A stretch of 64,000 nt of DNA from Pirellulales bacterium (GTDB taxonomy: Bacteria; Planctomycetota; Planctomycetia; Pirellulales; UBA1268), in the NCBI GenBank assembly GCA_016779265.1, contig JADHNY010000004.1, positions 5,584 through 69,583 of the forward strand, written 5' to 3'. This document shows positions 57,676 through 64,000 of the stretch, one piece after another (position 1 is the first letter of the stretch; the number at the start of each line of letters is the position of its first letter). The notes under the pieces were generated by a model. It was not told the DNA's origin and ran no database searches. It saw nothing but the letters and a program-made list of their open reading frames with translations. A program made the translations under genes and the position numbers.

Positions 57676-58968
57676 TCAGCCAGCAAAGGTGGCCACGAGC
57701 TTGAGCACCGTTCGGGCGGTCAAAAGCGTGGTCACCACCAGGCCTAGTGACGCCATCACGAGCATCCAGCGGGGAATTTTCCTGGCCCCCGTCAGTTCCG
57801 GCCGGGTCGCCAGATAGAGCAGCGTGGCTGCGAGTGCGGGCAGTCCCAGCACGGTCGATGCCTGGGCGACTGTAATCGCAGCAACAGGCTTGATGCCCAT
57901 CAGCTGGCAGCCAATCGCAATCCCCATAGCGATCAGTAGAGCGGCCACCGTCGCATGCTTCGTGCCGCGGTCATTCATCGTTTCTCCAAAGCCAAAGCCG
58001 TCAGCAAGCATGTTGCCGCCGATCAACGCGTTGACCATGAAGGCCCCAAAGCCACCAGCAAAGATGCCGGTGCTGAAGACGAGGGTGGCATAACGGCCAA
58101 ACAGCGGCTCAAACTGCCGGGCGACATCGCTGACGTTGGTGAGCGTGGCGGGATCGACATCCGTACCATGCAGCGCCGCAGCCGCTGTGCTCATCAGGAT
58201 CACCGAAACACCGCCGAGCACCATGATGCCGGCGAGAGAGTCGACCATGCCCTTGCGTGCATCAGCGATCCCCCAGCCACGGGCCCGCACGTTGTAGGCC
58301 TGGTAGAAGGCTCCTGCCACAGAAAAGGTCGTTGCCACTAGGGCCTGCAGCACCGTCACATTTGCATCCGCCTTCGGTGAGAGCAGCATCGCAAAGCCAC
58401 CTTCGGGCGGTGATGGAATCAGCCCTCGCAGCATGGCGGCAATGTCTGGCCTAGCCAAAACGAAGTTCACCAGGAACGAACAGACCACGACCAGCACGAT
58501 GCCCTTCAGGAGTTTCTCGACCGGCTTGTAGAGATTGCTGAATCGGTAAATCACCGCGATCACAAAGGCATTGACCGCCAGCAGCACTGCCACGGGCATC
58601 AGCGGAGAGCCGTCGCTGCCCAGCGGCAGCCCAAAGGCCTGCAAGGCGGCCACCACAGCGATGTTGTTGCTGACCTGAAAACCCACCACGACGAGAAACA
58701 GGCAAAGCCCCACGAACGCAGCAACACCTCGCCCCAAACGGGCGGCAACCTCGCCAAGGAGTGTTCGCTCAAACACAACCCCAAGCCGTGCCGAAAGCAC
58801 GATCATGCCCCACATCAAGGCAGCCGCGGAGACCACCACCCAGAGCATGGAGTAGCCGTAGATTGCTCCCGTCTTGGAGCTCATCAGCATGCTGCCAGGT
58901 CCACAGACCACGGCTGCCACAATGATCGCTGGCCCAACTGACCGAAGAACTGAGAGCAGTCCCTGCAT
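57676..58968 (-). CDS. NRAMP-family divalent metal (or related) transporter
   Basis: GPAIIVAAVVCGPGS; YGYSMLW; FQVSNN; ATTFS; about 11 TM segments. Confidence 0.8.
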   Translation of the reverse strand: MQGLLSVLRSVGPAIIVAAVVCGPGSMLMSSKTGAIYGYSMLWVVVSAAALMWGMIVLSARLGVVFERTLLGEVAARLGRGVAAFVGLCLFLVVVGFQVSNNIAVVAALQAFGLPLGSDGSPLMPVAVLLAVNAFVIAVIYRFSNLYKPVEKLLKGIVLVVVCSFLVNFVLARPDIAAMLRGLIPSPPEGGFAMLLSPKADANVTVLQALVATTFSVAGAFYQAYNVRARGWGIADARKGMVDSLAGIMVLGGVSVILMSTAAAALHGTDVDPATLTNVSDVARQFEPLFGRYATLVFSTGIFAGGFGAFMVNALIGGNMLADGFGFGETMNDRGTKHATVAALLIAMGIAIGCQLMGIKPVAAITVAQASTVLGLPALAATLLYLATRPELTGARKIPRWMLVMASLGLVVTTLLTARTVLKLVATFAG

Positions 58969-59046
58969 CGCGTATCCCCCTACAAAACGCTGATTACTCG
59001 ATGCGTAGGATAGCCCAGCAACCCCCTGCTCTGCGACCGAAACAGA

Positions 59047-60366
59047 TCAGTACTTAAAGCCAACGCCCACATCGATGCCGTCAGCAGAGAGTTCCGATGT
59101 CACGTTGGTGCCAGGGATGGGGCCACGAGGCGTTTGCCAGGGGCCACTCACGCTTCCGGTGAAGAAGTGGGCATAGGCCACCGACACATTGAAGCGATCA
59201 GAGATGTCGTACGTGCCGCCGAGCGTGACCGCCTGCTGCATCACGAAGGGGGAAGCGACATTCGCAAAGGCCTGATCCTCACCGATCGGCTTCGTGTTGT
59301 AGGAGTAGCCAATCCGCAGCCGAGTGGCCTCGGAGTAGCTGTACTCGGCACCCGTGGCCACAGCAAACATGTCGGCCACATCAAGACCTCGCACACCGCC
59401 CTCTGGCGTGAAGCCAGACGCCGAATACGGAGTCGTCGCTTCAAAGTTTAGGTAGCGAAGATCGCAGGCAAACTTCCAGTGTTCAAAGCCGCGGTAGGCC
59501 GCTCCTATCGAGAGCACCGGTGGCGCATCGACCAGGAAGTTGATTGTGCGAGGCGAGCCGTTCGGGGTGCTCGACGCATACTGAAACGGAACGAATGACT
59601 GCAGACTGCGGTACGAAATCCCAAAATCAATGTCGTAGTCGGTCTCGTACCAGGCGCCAAACATGAAGCCGCCGCCCCAGTGGTAGCCCGTGTGGGTCAG
59701 CGGGGGATACACAGGCTGCCCGCCCTGCATGTCGGGGGCCGCGAGGATGCCGGGATCAACCGCCAGCGACGCGATATTGATGAGCGGTGAGAAACTGATC
59801 GAGAGTTGATCCGTCAACTGGTAGGCCAGCGTGGGCGCGATCTGCAGCAAAATGTACTGTGAGAAGATCGGTCCGACACCAAAGCCCTGCGGTGGGCGTG
59901 GCGACACCAAGGGGTTTTCTGGGCTACCGGGATAGTTCACTCCAAACCCCGCGAGCGTCATCAGCCCAACACCGTACGACATTCTCGAATCATCCGGCCG
60001 ATACACGAAGCCGAAGTTCGGAATGGGAAACGCACCACTCTCGCTGGCAGTCCGCCCCCCCACATCCATTGGCGGCATACCTGGCCCAAATGCTCCAGCA
60101 TCGACCTCGGATGAGAGCGACGCATAAGGCATAAAGACTTCAAGTGCCATGTCCGCCGAGTTCGGCAATGCCGTCAGCGTGGCAGGATTCCAAAGAAAGG
60201 CCCCGAGCGTATCAAGGGGGAGCGCCGTCGACGCCCCGGCGATCGAGCGATTAATGGGGCCGGCGCCAGTAAGCAGTGGGCCGTACTGGGCGGCTGCTGA
60301 TGATGCCCACACGCTCGCCACCACCATCATGAGACCGACGCTCAGACGTTGCCGCCATCCGATCAT
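59047..60366 (-). CDS. FadL/OmpP1/Toluene_X family outer-membrane transport protein
   Basis: GAGPINRSIAGA; WNPATL; PNFGFV; GFGVNY; LRIGYSYN; C-terminal VGFKY. Confidence 0.85.
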   Translation of the reverse strand: MIGWRQRLSVGLMMVVASVWASSAAAQYGPLLTGAGPINRSIAGASTALPLDTLGAFLWNPATLTALPNSADMALEVFMPYASLSSEVDAGAFGPGMPPMDVGGRTASESGAFPIPNFGFVYRPDDSRMSYGVGLMTLAGFGVNYPGSPENPLVSPRPPQGFGVGPIFSQYILLQIAPTLAYQLTDQLSISFSPLINIASLAVDPGILAAPDMQGGQPVYPPLTHTGYHWGGGFMFGAWYETDYDIDFGISYRSLQSFVPFQYASSTPNGSPRTINFLVDAPPVLSIGAAYRGFEHWKFACDLRYLNFEATTPYSASGFTPEGGVRGLDVADMFAVATGAEYSYSEATRLRIGYSYNTKPIGEDQAFANVASPFVMQQAVTLGGTYDISDRFNVSVAYAHFFTGSVSGPWQTPRGPIPGTNVTSELSADGIDVGVGFKY

Positions 60367-60514
60367 GAGGATTTCCTCGGAGAGGCTCCGCACCAAACCA
60401 GGATGTCAGCCTGTGGACATCTTTGGGTGGTATCGGTCATGCCGATGAATCTGGTTGTGCCGAATGACAGGCCCCAAGAAAAGCCTCCCAAACCCCCAGG
60501 GTTTTCAGCCGGTG

Positions 60515-62020
60515 CTAGACAGACGCGGACGAGGCCTTCAGGCCAGTCACCTGAAAGATCTCCATAGGCTCCTTGCCTTTGAGAGGCACAAGCCCGAGCG
60601 ACACGCCTTCGCAGACATCCGCCACACGCATCCAGGTCGTCCTGCTCACGCAGACGGAGCCTGGCATTGCTGCATGCTCGATACGAGAGGCCGTGTTCAC
60701 TGCGTCACCCCAGATGTCGTACTGATACTTGCGATGGCCCACGACGCCGGCAAACACCGGCCCGCAGTGGACACCAACCCGCACCTGCCAGCGCGGAAGT
60801 GCCTTCGCCACCTGTTCGGCCATCTCCAGACCACAGCGGACTGATGCCAGCGCGGCATCTCCCTCTGTGCCAAGTCCAGCAGCAGCCATGAACGCATCGC
60901 CGATCGTCTTGATTTTCTCCAGCCCATGATGCGTACACGCCGCCTCCTGCACCTCAACCATGGTCTGTAGATGCTGCAGAAGTTCCTCCGGGGTGGCCTG
61001 CTCAGAAAACGCCGTAAAGCCAACCACATCACAGAACAACACACCCACGTCATCGAATCGGCGTGGCCGTACGCTGCTGTTGTTCTTCAACTCGGCTGCC
61101 ACATCGGGAGGCAGAATTACATGCAGCAGTTCATCCGACCGCTTCTTCTCCTGCTCGATACGGTCGAGGTATGCCTGCTCGCGGTCACGAAGTCGCTTCT
61201 TCTCAAGGCTGGCATTGATCCGTGTTCGCAGGAACACCGGGTCACACGGCTTGCGGAGATGGTCATCAGCCCCGAGCGCAATGCAGCGAACAACCGTCTG
61301 CGGCTCGTCGTCCGCGGAGAGCACGATCACGGGGATCGACTGCAGCTGCGGATCGGCCTTCAGCTGCTCAAGCACGGCCATTCCATCAAGCCGTGGCATC
61401 CAGAGATCGAGAAGAATCAGATCAAACGGCTGCTCACGGATTCGCTCCAGGCAAACAACACCGTCTTCCGCAAAGCCCACCTCATGCCCCAGTTGCTGCA
61501 GACGCCGTGAAAGGATCTCCCTATTCACAGCGCTGTCATCGACCACCAGGATTCTCCCTGGCTGTCCCGTCGGCAAATGGACATCGGCGACCTCGCGGCT
61601 GACTGCATAAACACCCGTGCCGTCGCTACCGCCCGTTATCACCCGCTCACTGATGACACCAAGCAGTCTCTCGGCAGCCCCCCGGATCTTGCCAACATCC
61701 GCTGCGATACTCGCCTCCCCAGCAGCCGTCGCTTCCTCAGCAACGAGTTCGGTGTAGCCAAGAATCTGATTGAGCGGCTCGCGAACTTCACGGTCAATCG
61801 TCTCGGGAGGCACCGGCGTGACCGTCCGGGCAGCTGGCGCAAGCGTTGACTCAATGACGGTCAGCAGTCGCTGACCAGCGGCATGGATCTTCTGCAGATC
61901 GTGCACAATCTGCTCGTGACCAGCATCAGACGCATCCTCAATGGCGATCTCGCTGTAGCCAAGGATGTGGTTGAGCGGCGAACGAAGTTCATGCCCCACA
62001 GACGCTTCGTGCGTGCTCAT
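60515..62020 (-). CDS. Class III adenylate/guanylate cyclase: DHp-DHp*-REC-cyclase
   Basis: HELRSPLNHILGY; REVREPLNQILGY; ILVVDD...LLDLWMP...KP; VLFCDVVGFT; KIKTIGDAFM; YDIWGDAVNTASR. Confidence 0.92.
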   Translation of the reverse strand: MSTHEASVGHELRSPLNHILGYSEIAIEDASDAGHEQIVHDLQKIHAAGQRLLTVIESTLAPAARTVTPVPPETIDREVREPLNQILGYTELVAEEATAAGEASIAADVGKIRGAAERLLGVISERVITGGSDGTGVYAVSREVADVHLPTGQPGRILVVDDSAVNREILSRRLQQLGHEVGFAEDGVVCLERIREQPFDLILLDLWMPRLDGMAVLEQLKADPQLQSIPVIVLSADDEPQTVVRCIALGADDHLRKPCDPVFLRTRINASLEKKRLRDREQAYLDRIEQEKKRSDELLHVILPPDVAAELKNNSSVRPRRFDDVGVLFCDVVGFTAFSEQATPEELLQHLQTMVEVQEAACTHHGLEKIKTIGDAFMAAAGLGTEGDAALASVRCGLEMAEQVAKALPRWQVRVGVHCGPVFAGVVGHRKYQYDIWGDAVNTASRIEHAAMPGSVCVSRTTWMRVADVCEGVSLGLVPLKGKEPMEIFQVTGLKASSASV

Positions 62021-62391
62021 GACTGCCGAGGCCCTAAGAACTGCTCGATCTTTTCAAGCAGCCGGACAAACTCCACAGGCTTCGTCTCATACTCATCACA
62101 ACCAACATCCAACGCCTTTTCACGATCTCCTGCCATGGCATGCGCCGTGAGGGCAATGATGGGAATCTGCCCAGTTTCCTCTGCCGCCTTGATCCGCTTC
62201 GTGGCCTCCCAGCCATCGATCAGTGGGATATTCATATCCATCAGGATTAGGGCTGGCGAGTCGGCCGAAGCCTTCGCCACAGCCTCTTCCCCATCAACAG
62301 CGACCGTCACCGTATACCCCTTCCGCTGCAGCCGGCGAGACAGCATGTCGCGATTAAGTTCGTTGTCTTCAACAAGCAGGATCGTGGACAT
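62017..62391 (-). CDS. Single-domain response regulator (DivK-like)
   Basis: ILLVEDN; LILMDMNIP.IDG; IIALTAHAM; TKP. Confidence 0.93.
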   Translation of the reverse strand: MSTILLVEDNELNRDMLSRRLQRKGYTVTVAVDGEEAVAKASADSPALILMDMNIPLIDGWEATKRIKAAEETGQIPIIALTAHAMAGDREKALDVGCDEYETKPVEFVRLLEKIEQFLGPRQS

Positions 62392-62413
62392 AAAAATCTA
62401 CTCTGGAAAAAAC

Positions 62414-64000
62414 TTAGTTGAGCGGAGAAGGGTGTGGATTCAGGTGCAGACGGTCTCGCAGATACTTGGAGACATCCTTTGCCGTCGTGATGCTTTTGGG
62501 AATGATGTCAACAACCCCTCCATTCATCTGCGCGCGTTGTGCTGGTGTTACATCCATGGCCGACACCACCACAACCGGCACTGCATCACCTCCAGGAATC
62601 TGACGAAACCGTTTTAGGAACTCAAAGCCATCCATCTCCGGCATCATCAGATCGAGCAGAATGACCACTGGAAGTTCGGCCTCAACCAACTCCAGCCCAA
62701 CTCGTCCGTTCTCAGCTTCAAGAACCCGCCAGCCATCTTTTTTCAGAAGCCGCACAATCTGCTCACGGCTCGCCTCGTCGTCTTCGACGACCAAGACCGG
62801 CCGGCCATCACGGTCCTTCCTGTGTCGCGCCATGATTTCTCCGAGACGCGACCAGTCAACGGGCTTCGTGAGGTACTGCGAGGCGCCCACGGCCACTCCC
62901 ATATCACGGCTGTCGGTGACCGTCACCACGACCACGGGAATCTGTGAGGTCTTCGGGTCGTTGCGGAGCGCCGTCACCACCTCCCAGCCATCCATTTCAG
63001 GCATCATCACGTCGGTGGTCACCGCCATAGGCTGCAGCCTGCGTGCCATCTCCACACCGTCGCGCCCGTTCGCGGCAAGGTGGACATCGAAGCCTTCTTT
63101 GGTCAAAAAACGATCCATCAGTTCCAGCATCACAGGATCGTCGTCGATCACCAGAATCGAGGGCCGTTTGCCTTGGCTCGTCGCTTCTCGCTTATACGCA
63201 TCGAGTGGAGTTCCTGTTGCACTCACCTCAGTACTCACCGCTGGCAGAGTCACGGTAAATGTCGACCCCTTGCCTGTCTCGCTTTCAACAGTGATGTCAC
63301 CACCGAGCATCCGGCAGAACCGGCGGCTGATTGCCAAGCCCAGGCCCGTCCCTCCAAACCGACGCGTCGTGGAAGAGTCTGCCTGAGTGAACGCCTGAAA
63401 AAGCTTGGCGACCTGCGTGCTGCTCATCCCAATGCCGGTGTCAGTTACCTGAAACACCAGCACCTCTCCCGACGGCTCCGCGTGCCGCGTCACCAGAACC
63501 CGGATGCTTCCCTGCTCGCAAAACTTCGCCGCATTGCTGAGGAGATTGATGAGAGTCTGCCGAACCTTGGTGAGATCACTCTTCATCTCACCGCAGTCAT
63601 CGCCAACCCGCACCTCGAGCGTGTTCTGGTTTTGACGCAGCAGAGGCTGCACGGTGTTTTCAACATCACGGACCACCGAGGCCACATCAAACGCCTCAAT
63701 AAATACCGTCATCTTGCCGCTCTCGATCTTAGAGATATCGAGAACGTCGTTGATCAACGACAACAGATGTCGACCTGCTCCATGAATCTTATTCAGGTCG
63801 CCCACGACCTCATCAGGCTCCATCGAGTCAAACTCCTCCATCAGCATTTCGCTGTAGCCGATGATCGCATTCATCGGAGTCCGGAGTTCATGGCTCATGT
63901 TGGCGAGAAACATCGACTTCGCGTAGTTGGCCTCCACGGCCGCATCACGGGCCTTCATGAGATCGGCGTTCATCTGCTCGTTGGCTACTTCCGCGCGGAG
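62414..64000 (-). CDS. Hybrid histidine kinase with two receiver domains (partial; 5' end beyond the right edge)
   Basis: [19 protein letters not shown]; NLLSNAAKF; DTGIG; GGTGLGL; two REC domains. The frame is open to position 64000 ([13 protein letters not shown]). Confidence 0.93.

Follow-up and report, generated by a model that had tools for sequence, protein, structure and literature searches.

A putative single-chain histidine phosphotransferase built of tandem kinase-like hairpins and fused to a receiver-adenylate cyclase in a Pirellulales bacterium

The right end of a 64-kb stretch of DNA (the window) from Pirellulales bacterium GCA_016779265.1 (contig JADHNY010000004.1; whole genome of 3.9 Mb) carries on its minus strand, head to tail, the genes for a hybrid histidine kinase, a single-domain receiver (REC) and an adenylate cyclase. 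The cyclase begins with two tandem hairpins of the dimerisation and histidine phosphotransfer (DHp) type, followed by a receiver and a class III catalytic domain. The explanation that we favour, and consider moderately probable, is that this hairpin pair is a single-chain phosphotransferase without the catalytic ATP-binding (CA) domain of kinases, through which phosphoryl groups would pass from the kinase His to a receiver Asp, to His10 of the cyclase, to Asp205 of its own receiver and thereby to the cyclase. This proposal builds on the domain content, on residue conservation, on the predicted fold, and on the conservation of both the operon and the DHp-DHp-REC cassette. The genes and the kinase domains are laid out as follows.

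62414 to beyond 64000, minus strand: hybrid histidine kinase; the C-terminal 528 of its 728 residues lie in the window and the N-terminal 200 beyond its end (full gene L009:2998-5184)
63716-63922, minus strand: DHp of the kinase, His codon at 63890-63892 (Pfam, codon check)
63239-63577, minus strand: HATPase of the kinase (Pfam)
62837-63157, minus strand: first receiver of the kinase, REC1
about 62441-62788, minus strand: second receiver of the kinase, REC2
62017-62391, minus strand: single-domain receiver gene of 124 residues with E8/D9, D52, T82 and K104 (open reading frame, Pfam), kept in the module across phyla
60515-62020, minus strand: DHp-DHp-REC-adenylate cyclase gene of 501 residues (open reading frame; Pfam HisKA twice, Response_reg and Guanylate_cyc; AlphaFold2 model)

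The single receiver gene starts 22 nucleotides past the stop codon of the kinase, and its own stop overlaps the start of the cyclase gene by 4 nucleotides (ATGA). The cyclase itself is divided into six regions.

61826-62014, minus strand: DHp repeat 1, residues 3-65, H-box GHELRSP, with His10 encoded by CAT at 61991-61993
61637-61807, minus strand: DHp repeat 2, residues 72-128, degenerate H-box DREVREP, with Arg77 encoded by CGT at 61790-61792
61556-61636, minus strand: flexible linker from the hairpins to the receiver, residues 129-155, with a predicted local distance difference test score (pLDDT) below 50 at 132-141; the least conserved of all regions
61211-61555, minus strand: receiver, residues 156-270 (Response_reg at 157-268, Pfam 98.9 bits), phospho-acceptor Asp205 encoded by GAT at 61406-61408
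61067-61210, minus strand: long signalling helix and cyclase-transducer-like element, residues 271-318 (AlphaFold2 helices 261-302 and 305-314)
60545-61066, minus strand: class III cyclase catalytic domain, residues 319-492 (Pfam Guanylate_cyc 146 bits; Foldseek)

The Pfam family HisKA (PF00512) matches the cyclase with 44.1 bits, against a cut-off of 26.9 bits, in two stretches that AlphaFold2 models as hairpins. HATPase_c, the domain required of a sensor histidine kinase, gives no match anywhere in the protein down to E <= 1. The original prediction, made from the DNA letters, had described just this arrangement, with a phospho-His in the first repeat and an Arg in the second, and all the motifs that it quoted are present, including that of the kinase. 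Repeat 1 carries GHELRSPLNHILGYSE and DLQKIHAAGQRLL within residues 9-53, and repeat 2 carries DREVREPLNQILGYTE at residues 76-91. At the fourth residue after the His position (H+4), repeat 1 has Ser and repeat 2 has Glu. Among 69 relatives sharing 50-85% identity, the residues H10, R13, P15, L16, G21, Y22, E24, E28, D41, L42, I45 and G49 of repeat 1 are invariant.

The remainder of the protein is equally well conserved at its functional positions. By its membership residues and its Pfam match, the region 156-270 is a response regulator receiver, and in its pocket (D161/D162, D205, S235, K257) D162, D205, S235 and K257 are invariant in the same 69 relatives and D161 nearly so. The cyclase residues D331, D375, K371, D435, N442 and R446 are invariant too; we take these six to be the two metal-binding Asp residues, the adenine-specifying Lys and Asp, and the transition-state Asn and Arg. 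As we assume that the Lys/Asp pair K371/D435 marks ATP-specific class III enzymes, the product is likely to be cyclic AMP (cAMP). A Foldseek search with the full-length model retrieves solved cyclases with target-normalised template modelling (TM) scores of 0.83-0.91, a result dominated by the cyclase and uninformative on the N-terminus. The top matches, 5o5l and 5o5k, align over 215-223 columns, compared with a Pfam cyclase stretch of 174 residues, and Pfam reports a weak match to the C-terminal part of HNOBA at residues 283-311; the additional columns and the HNOBA match point to the same segment, a transducer-like element.

Both repeats are closely related to the DHp of the neighbouring kinase, as had been claimed. 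When searched with tblastn against the whole genome, repeat 1 finds as its best non-self match the DHp of the adjacent kinase (45% identity over 55 residues, ungapped, E 2e-12) and as its second match repeat 2 (48% over 50 residues, E 4e-10); any further kinase of the genome scores no better than E 1e-4. Repeat 2 matches the adjacent kinase with E 3e-7, and no other kinase falls below E 0.5. The cyclase repeats are likewise close to the DHp of the partner kinase in an orthologous operon of the Verrucomicrobia type. Judged by these sequence comparisons, the likeness is specific rather than generic. A second apparent 'DHp2+REC' unit in the genome (C164) was rejected, since its frame runs from a chemoreceptor's helical end across a stop codon into CheB.

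The predicted fold is that of an intramolecular pseudo-dimer, in agreement with the original prediction. In the AlphaFold2 model of the full protein (computed with 69 sequences; pLDDT 89.6), the N-terminus forms helices at 8-33, 36-65, 72-99 and 103-128, followed by a disordered tether at 132-141 and, past it, by a canonical receiver, a 40-residue helix and the cyclase. Residues 1-140 alone, modelled with 19 diverse sequences from several phyla, are predicted to fold into a compact four-helix bundle (helices 3-32, 36-60, 72-99 and 103-128) with a pLDDT of 88.9 and a predicted TM score (pTM) of 0.83, so that the mutual placement of the four helices is predicted confidently. The disordered spacing between repeat 2 and the receiver amounts to only about 27 residues. 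The best superposition of the bundle (Foldseek) is on 1yo7, the homodimeric ROP protein re-engineered as a single chain (TM 0.67/0.77, root-mean-square deviation 3.6 A), and further ones are on a pectin methylesterase inhibitor, on Ccsp and on de novo designed bundles, all of them single-chain up-down four-helix proteins. At the sequence level, a profile search of the PDB gave single-repeat matches only (HK853, RetS, DivL and others) and the tandem in none of its entries.

The distribution of the phosphorylatable His across the family fits this fold. Each repeat of 146 relatives was aligned to a hidden Markov model of the repeat and the residue in the His column was read, with the following outcome (repeat 1/repeat 2).

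H/H: 110 of 146 relatives
H/R: 17 of 146
Q/H: 9 of 146
Y/H: 1 of 146
H/Y: 1 of 146
H/H/R, in three repeats: 1 of 146
single DHp with His: 7 of 146

None of the 146 relatives is without any His. Parsimony requires at least 8 independent changes of the His state when these are mapped on a tree of the receiver and cyclase regions only, with the DHp repeats excluded. The H/R clade of the window protein, from Pirellulales, is monophyletic on this tree (14 tips, support 0.996); the His of repeat 2 was lost independently in P0092, in P0081 and in Opitutaceae. Loss of the repeat 1 His is characteristic of the alphaproteobacterial members and of one member of the Thiotrichaceae. The changes from His to Arg, Gln and Tyr are each reachable by a single base and each recur in the family; Arg at position 77 would appear to have no evident special meaning. 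The Arg of repeat 2 is thus a property of the Pirellulales clade of the window protein and not a family trait, since H/H prevails and Arg has only a few independent recurrences elsewhere. After the loss of its His, repeat 2 of the window clade keeps a mean pairwise identity of 0.65, compared with 0.61 elsewhere in the family and 0.27-0.36 in the linkers. Both this constraint and the pattern of His losses match what is expected of a pseudo-dimer in which the two halves are needed for the fold and one active site is enough.

The chemistry around the His varies as well. In four Opitutaceae loci (L045, L046, L024 and L026), repeat 1 reads RH[A/S/T]LRTP, with the His kept and the acidic residue at the following position (H+1) gone, and repeat 2 has the sequence R[H/R]DMRTP or Q[R]DLRTP, so that what is missing from the H-box differs between the halves. 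The H+1 acid is also absent from His-bearing repeats of other cassettes (HAT, HGT, HNT). This acidic residue is needed for autokinase chemistry, and its loss in some of the His-bearing repeats fits a shuttle that no longer needs it.

The hairpin pair is not restricted to cyclases. When 1.84 billion representative sequences (clustered at 50% identity) were searched with a tandem profile, 395 clusters came up at E <= 1e-30. Among the best 148 of these 395, a CA-less tandem of two or more repeats is present in 92, the others being ordinary kinases of the partner type, and only 2 of the 92 tandem-bearing representatives have no His in their CA-less repeats. The DHp-DHp-REC-cyclase architecture proved to be widespread, and the same cassette precedes complete kinase cores and other outputs besides class III cyclases.

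P0143, P0147, P0256: SpoIIE (PP2C) output
P0187: Sigma54_activat output, together with Fer4_5
P0219: Pkinase (Ser/Thr) output
P0126, P0137, P0139, P0146, P0265: histidine kinase core output

Because the same cassette precedes several outputs, the hairpin pair would belong functionally to the receiver and not to the cyclase. The hairpin pair can also be multiplied: three to six CA-less DHp repeats are detected in the receiver-cyclases P0123 (906 residues), P0124 (833 residues), and P0125 and P0127 (about 730 residues), and where a protein has four or six repeats these are arranged pairwise. The six repeats of P0123 form three pairs (30-154, 198-327 and 387-507), in which a linker of about 13 residues joins the members of a pair and 44-60 residues separate one pair from the next, and its His column reads -/H, R/H and Q/H, that is, one His per pair. 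Stand-alone DHp-DHp proteins are left out of our claims, since many of the short entries look like truncated gene calls, some of them ending in the first strand of the receiver.

Conservation extends to the genes around the cassette. In 17 of 24 loci compared, a hybrid kinase of CA-REC-REC type adjoins a gene for DHp(-DHp)-REC-cyclase, usually together with a single receiver gene; most of the other loci lie on short contigs or break off not far from the gene. The taxa represented are Verrucomicrobiota, Gemmatimonadota, Alpha- and Gammaproteobacteria, Opitutaceae and Chthonomonadaceae. Elsewhere, in the relatives L066 and L078, the kinase, receiver and cyclase are fused. Pfam finds no Hpt domain in the three window proteins or in the full-length kinase, and none is listed among the genes of four relatives' loci. 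Going by gene content, what a multistep phosphorelay requires (a hybrid kinase, a His-carrying candidate and a receiver with an output) is encoded together. Of the phosphorelay-to-cAMP module that had originally been proposed, the conserved gene trio without HPt is therefore borne out, and the dedication to cAMP is not, given the variety of outputs.

Once the phosphoryl group of a hybrid kinase has come to rest on a receiver Asp, a His carrier is required to bring it to a second receiver, and besides the kinase the module has just one conserved His-bearing element, the hairpin pair joined to the terminal receiver. It is for this reason that the route from kinase His to Asp, His10 and Asp205 is favoured. 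According to this model, duplication of a hairpin from the lineage of the partner kinase would have given a pseudo-dimer of two DHp repeats without an ATP-binding domain, that is, one four-helix bundle exposing a single phosphorylatable His, His10, for which repeat 2 with its Arg77 would be only the structural other half. The hybrid kinase would autophosphorylate, and the phosphoryl group would go next to either of the kinase's two receivers or, in the manner of Spo0F, to the stand-alone receiver. From the receiver Asp it would move to His10 of the bundle, and from His10 to Asp205, the flexible tether allowing delivery within the same molecule. For the step from receiver to His there is a precedent in RedE of the Myxococcus RedCDEF system, a kinase-like protein incapable of autophosphorylation whose conserved His is loaded by a receiver (PMC2755868). 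The phosphorylated receiver would then act through the long signalling helix and the transducer element on the dimeric class III domain, changing cAMP synthesis. We infer the phosphorylation of His10, the direction of the flow and its effect on cyclase activity from the features described above. With its H-box chemistry intact, the bundle may in addition catalyse the reverse transfer or the dephosphorylation of the receiver.

Hybrid kinases pass phosphate through HPt domains or, rarely, through proteins such as Spo0B and ChpT, and to our knowledge many of them are without a known downstream carrier. Spo0B and ChpT are separate homodimeric proteins in which the CA-like domain is degenerate and the H-box weak; the first acts in the Bacillus relay KinA-Spo0F-Spo0B-Spo0A, and the second in the Caulobacter relay CckA-ChpT-CtrA/CpdR. 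The dimeric, kinase-like build of ChpT has been described (PMC3433190). The cyclase bundle resembles both proteins in being a kinase-derived DHp four-helix bundle with a His, and the shuttling between receivers without autokinase activity that is theirs is what we propose here; the order of the parts, namely kinase, single receiver, DHp-type His and receiver with output, is also that of the KinA-Spo0F-Spo0B-Spo0A relay. In contrast to them, the cyclase bundle is predicted to be one chain of two repeats, its HisKA H-box is complete (44 bits to PF00512), and the receiver that it presumably targets belongs to the same protein. It is followed by a linker and this receiver where a CA-like alpha/beta domain would be expected, so it has neither this domain nor the stand-alone homodimeric build. 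The label 'ChpT-like' given to it in the original prediction consequently suits the proposed job and not the construction.

The HPt domains (PF01627; the C-terminus of ArcB, Ypd1, LuxU) are likewise monomeric four-helix bundles with one exposed His and, by working between hybrid-kinase receivers and terminal regulators, have the job proposed here, but the cyclase bundle has no match to the Hpt profile, and differs in its origin by DHp duplication and in the context of its H-box. Among multidomain class III adenylate cyclases, CyaC from Spirulina and Anabaena contains a complete kinase core with its ATPase domain and phosphorylates itself. ACR from Dictyostelium combines a histidine kinase domain with two receivers (PMC3009899). 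The window protein shares with CyaC and ACR the cyclase within a multidomain chain and, as proposed, the His-Asp control that is established for them, but has no ATPase domain or kinase core of its own and would rely on a separate kinase.

Annotation pipelines name such proteins just 'adenylate cyclase' or 'response regulator', and no description of a tandem or CA-less HisKA in receiver-cyclases was found in the open-access papers searched, an absence that is not proof. As far as found, no paper describes the putative single-chain, CA-less, receiver-fused DHp-type phosphotransferase, widespread as it is. On a more general level, we put forward tentatively, with slightly less than even confidence, that tandem CA-less DHp hairpins constitute a third, widespread class of histidine phosphotransfer modules beside HPt domains and the Spo0B/ChpT dimers: a pseudo-dimer in one chain for which one His is enough, portable as a DHp-DHp-REC cassette that leads hybrid-kinase relays into many outputs, and multipliable to two or three bundles. 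If the CA-less tandem does act as a carrier built into these proteins, a large number of orphan hybrid kinases would gain partners, in Planctomycetota, Verrucomicrobiota, Proteobacteria and further phyla. The tandem would also illustrate how a homodimeric kinase core can evolve into a one-chain carrier, with H/H, H/R and Q/H as natural variants of the principle that one site suffices, and would provide a His-Asp-His-Asp path to cAMP, compact and with its genes linked, that could be reconstituted in E. coli.

Several observations weigh against the favoured phosphotransfer route. Foldseek gives the bundle no significant E-value (best 0.1), which is common for helical bundles, and the AlphaFold2 prediction of a monomer would be compatible with interchain or swapped pairing in a cyclase dimer too. 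The retained H-box, with its acid at H+1 and Ser/Thr at H+4, fits a phosphatase equally well. Co-transcription of the three genes is presumed from the 4-nucleotide overlap and the 22-nucleotide gap alone, and a consensus scan for promoters and terminators over 58900-64000 gave nothing above shuffled expectation and no operon boundary. The module contains 4 receivers, more than a linear relay needs. Finally, an HPt partner encoded elsewhere might serve the module, as the genome has 5 Hpt matches outside the module, 4 of them in large open frames (622-880 residues) and 1 in a frame of 292 residues.

The alternative that fares best, unlikely though we consider it, is that the bundle serves solely for docking or as a phosphatase: it would bind the phosphorylated receiver of the cyclase, or the partner receivers, and speed up their dephosphorylation in the way known for kinase DHp domains, Asp205 being phosphorylated by the kinase directly and nothing being carried onward. 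RedE from Myxococcus, a kinase-like protein that does not autophosphorylate, takes a phosphoryl group from a receiver onto a conserved His and is also a phosphatase, and it dephosphorylates RedF independently of this His (PMC2755868). The kinase-like H-box (H-E/D-x-R-T/S-P) and the Thr at H+4 that is often kept in repeats without His (QDT, LET, YET, RNT) speak for such an activity. However, at least one His persists in every one of the 146 relatives and, with 2 exceptions, in the 92 tandem representatives, through repeated independent losses from the other repeat, and the phosphatase activity of RedE did not need its His. In addition, H+4 of the window cyclase is Ser in one repeat and Glu in the other, the H+1 acid is absent from some of the His-bearing repeats, and the presence of two receivers in a hybrid kinase that has no HPt points to a relay. 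As RedE performs both functions, a dual role as carrier and phosphatase is by analogy plausible here. RedE differs from the window cyclase in keeping HATPase_c, in its poorly conserved HisKA and in being a separate protein, with no tandem fused to a receiver.

It is less probable still that the module is a split kinase, in which the ATPase domain of the neighbouring kinase would phosphorylate His10 in trans for direct transfer to Asp205, instead of a His-Asp-His-Asp relay. Phosphorylation of this kind is known from the P1 domain of CheA and from CheA3, which is phosphorylated by CheA4, and would suit the genome-wide closeness of both repeats to the DHp of the adjacent kinase, with which they align without gaps, with the same loop length and with a full H-box. 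Nevertheless, the kinase has its own intact DHp with a His and two receivers, the H+1 acid that serves autophosphorylation is lost in several of the His-bearing CA-less repeats, and some cassettes reside in proteins with a complete kinase core downstream of the receiver.

Equally improbable is a structural or regulatory element that is never phosphorylated and either dimerises the cyclase between chains or modulates the kinase by forming mixed bundles with its DHp, as RetS is reported to do with GacS. In its favour, class III cyclases must dimerise, the solved structures nearest in sequence include those of the RetS DHp (6dk7, 6dk8) and the two-chain kinase 7n0e, and relatives with a single DHp exist (L038, L043, L049), but a scaffold needs no His and one is kept almost universally, the repeats come in pairs that AlphaFold2 packs together (pTM 0.83), and the cassette is joined to several unrelated outputs, including a PP2C phosphatase and a Ser/Thr kinase.

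With the phosphotransfer route as the preferred explanation, the receivers that would feed it can be compared. The single-domain receiver had been called DivK-like; it is a canonical single-domain receiver and nothing more specific, since NCBIfam gives generic REC matches only. Certain features distinguish receiver classes, among them an aromatic switch residue on beta5 (PMC9981736). In REC2 of the kinase, this position is occupied by Ile within the motif IIPKS, which has 'PKS' in place of the usual Lys-Pro, and the residue three positions before the conserved Lys is Tyr in REC1 and in the single receiver and His in the cyclase receiver, where the family consensus is Tyr (all by eye). REC2 may be an intermediate or atypical receiver, although these beta5 features are suggestive only and were not used for the verdict.

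The input side of the module varies between lineages. Directly upstream of the kinase and on the minus strand, immediately outside the window (L009:5236-6145; C101), lie genes for TusA (76.7 bits) and DsrE_2 (165 bits), and the order TusA-DsrE_2-kinase-REC-cyclase recurs in the relatives L099 and L100 (64% and 80% identity). The N-terminus of the kinase, of about 220 residues, has no Pfam match, a feature shared by these two relatives, and its TusA and DsrE_2 neighbours suggest a sulfur- or thiol-related input. In two operons of the Verrucomicrobia type (L010:1587-5579 and L012:1548-5598; 50-54% identity), the partner kinase is instead of CHASE8-HAMP type and is preceded by a DUF4154 gene, itself preceded by a gene for an outer-membrane-protein-like product with a faint Phenol_MetA_deg match in L010 and no family on record in L012. 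This layout presumably resembles the input side of YfiB/YfiR/YfiN, and only the kinase core, the receiver and the cyclase are shared with the genome studied here. Comparison of the two gene orders suggests that the sensory front end was swapped and the relay core kept between the Verrucomicrobia-type operons and the clade of the window protein.

Other genes surround the locus. A FadL/Toluene_X-type outer-membrane protein (59047-60396, minus strand) is encoded 118 nucleotides downstream of the cyclase, an arrangement also seen in L099, and is followed by an Nramp transporter (57676-58968, minus strand), which in L100 comes directly after the cyclase. For the predicted product of the cyclase, the genome encodes 2 proteins with cyclic nucleotide-binding domains. 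On the kinase side, the operon is flanked by a 1021-residue protein with DUF7133, HEAT and cytochrome c domains (L009:6237-9302, minus strand), a DUF7133 gene preceding TusA in L100 too, and by a PSCyt1-PSCyt2-PSD1 protein (L009:10846-13395, plus strand), whose domains are typical of planctomycete genes.

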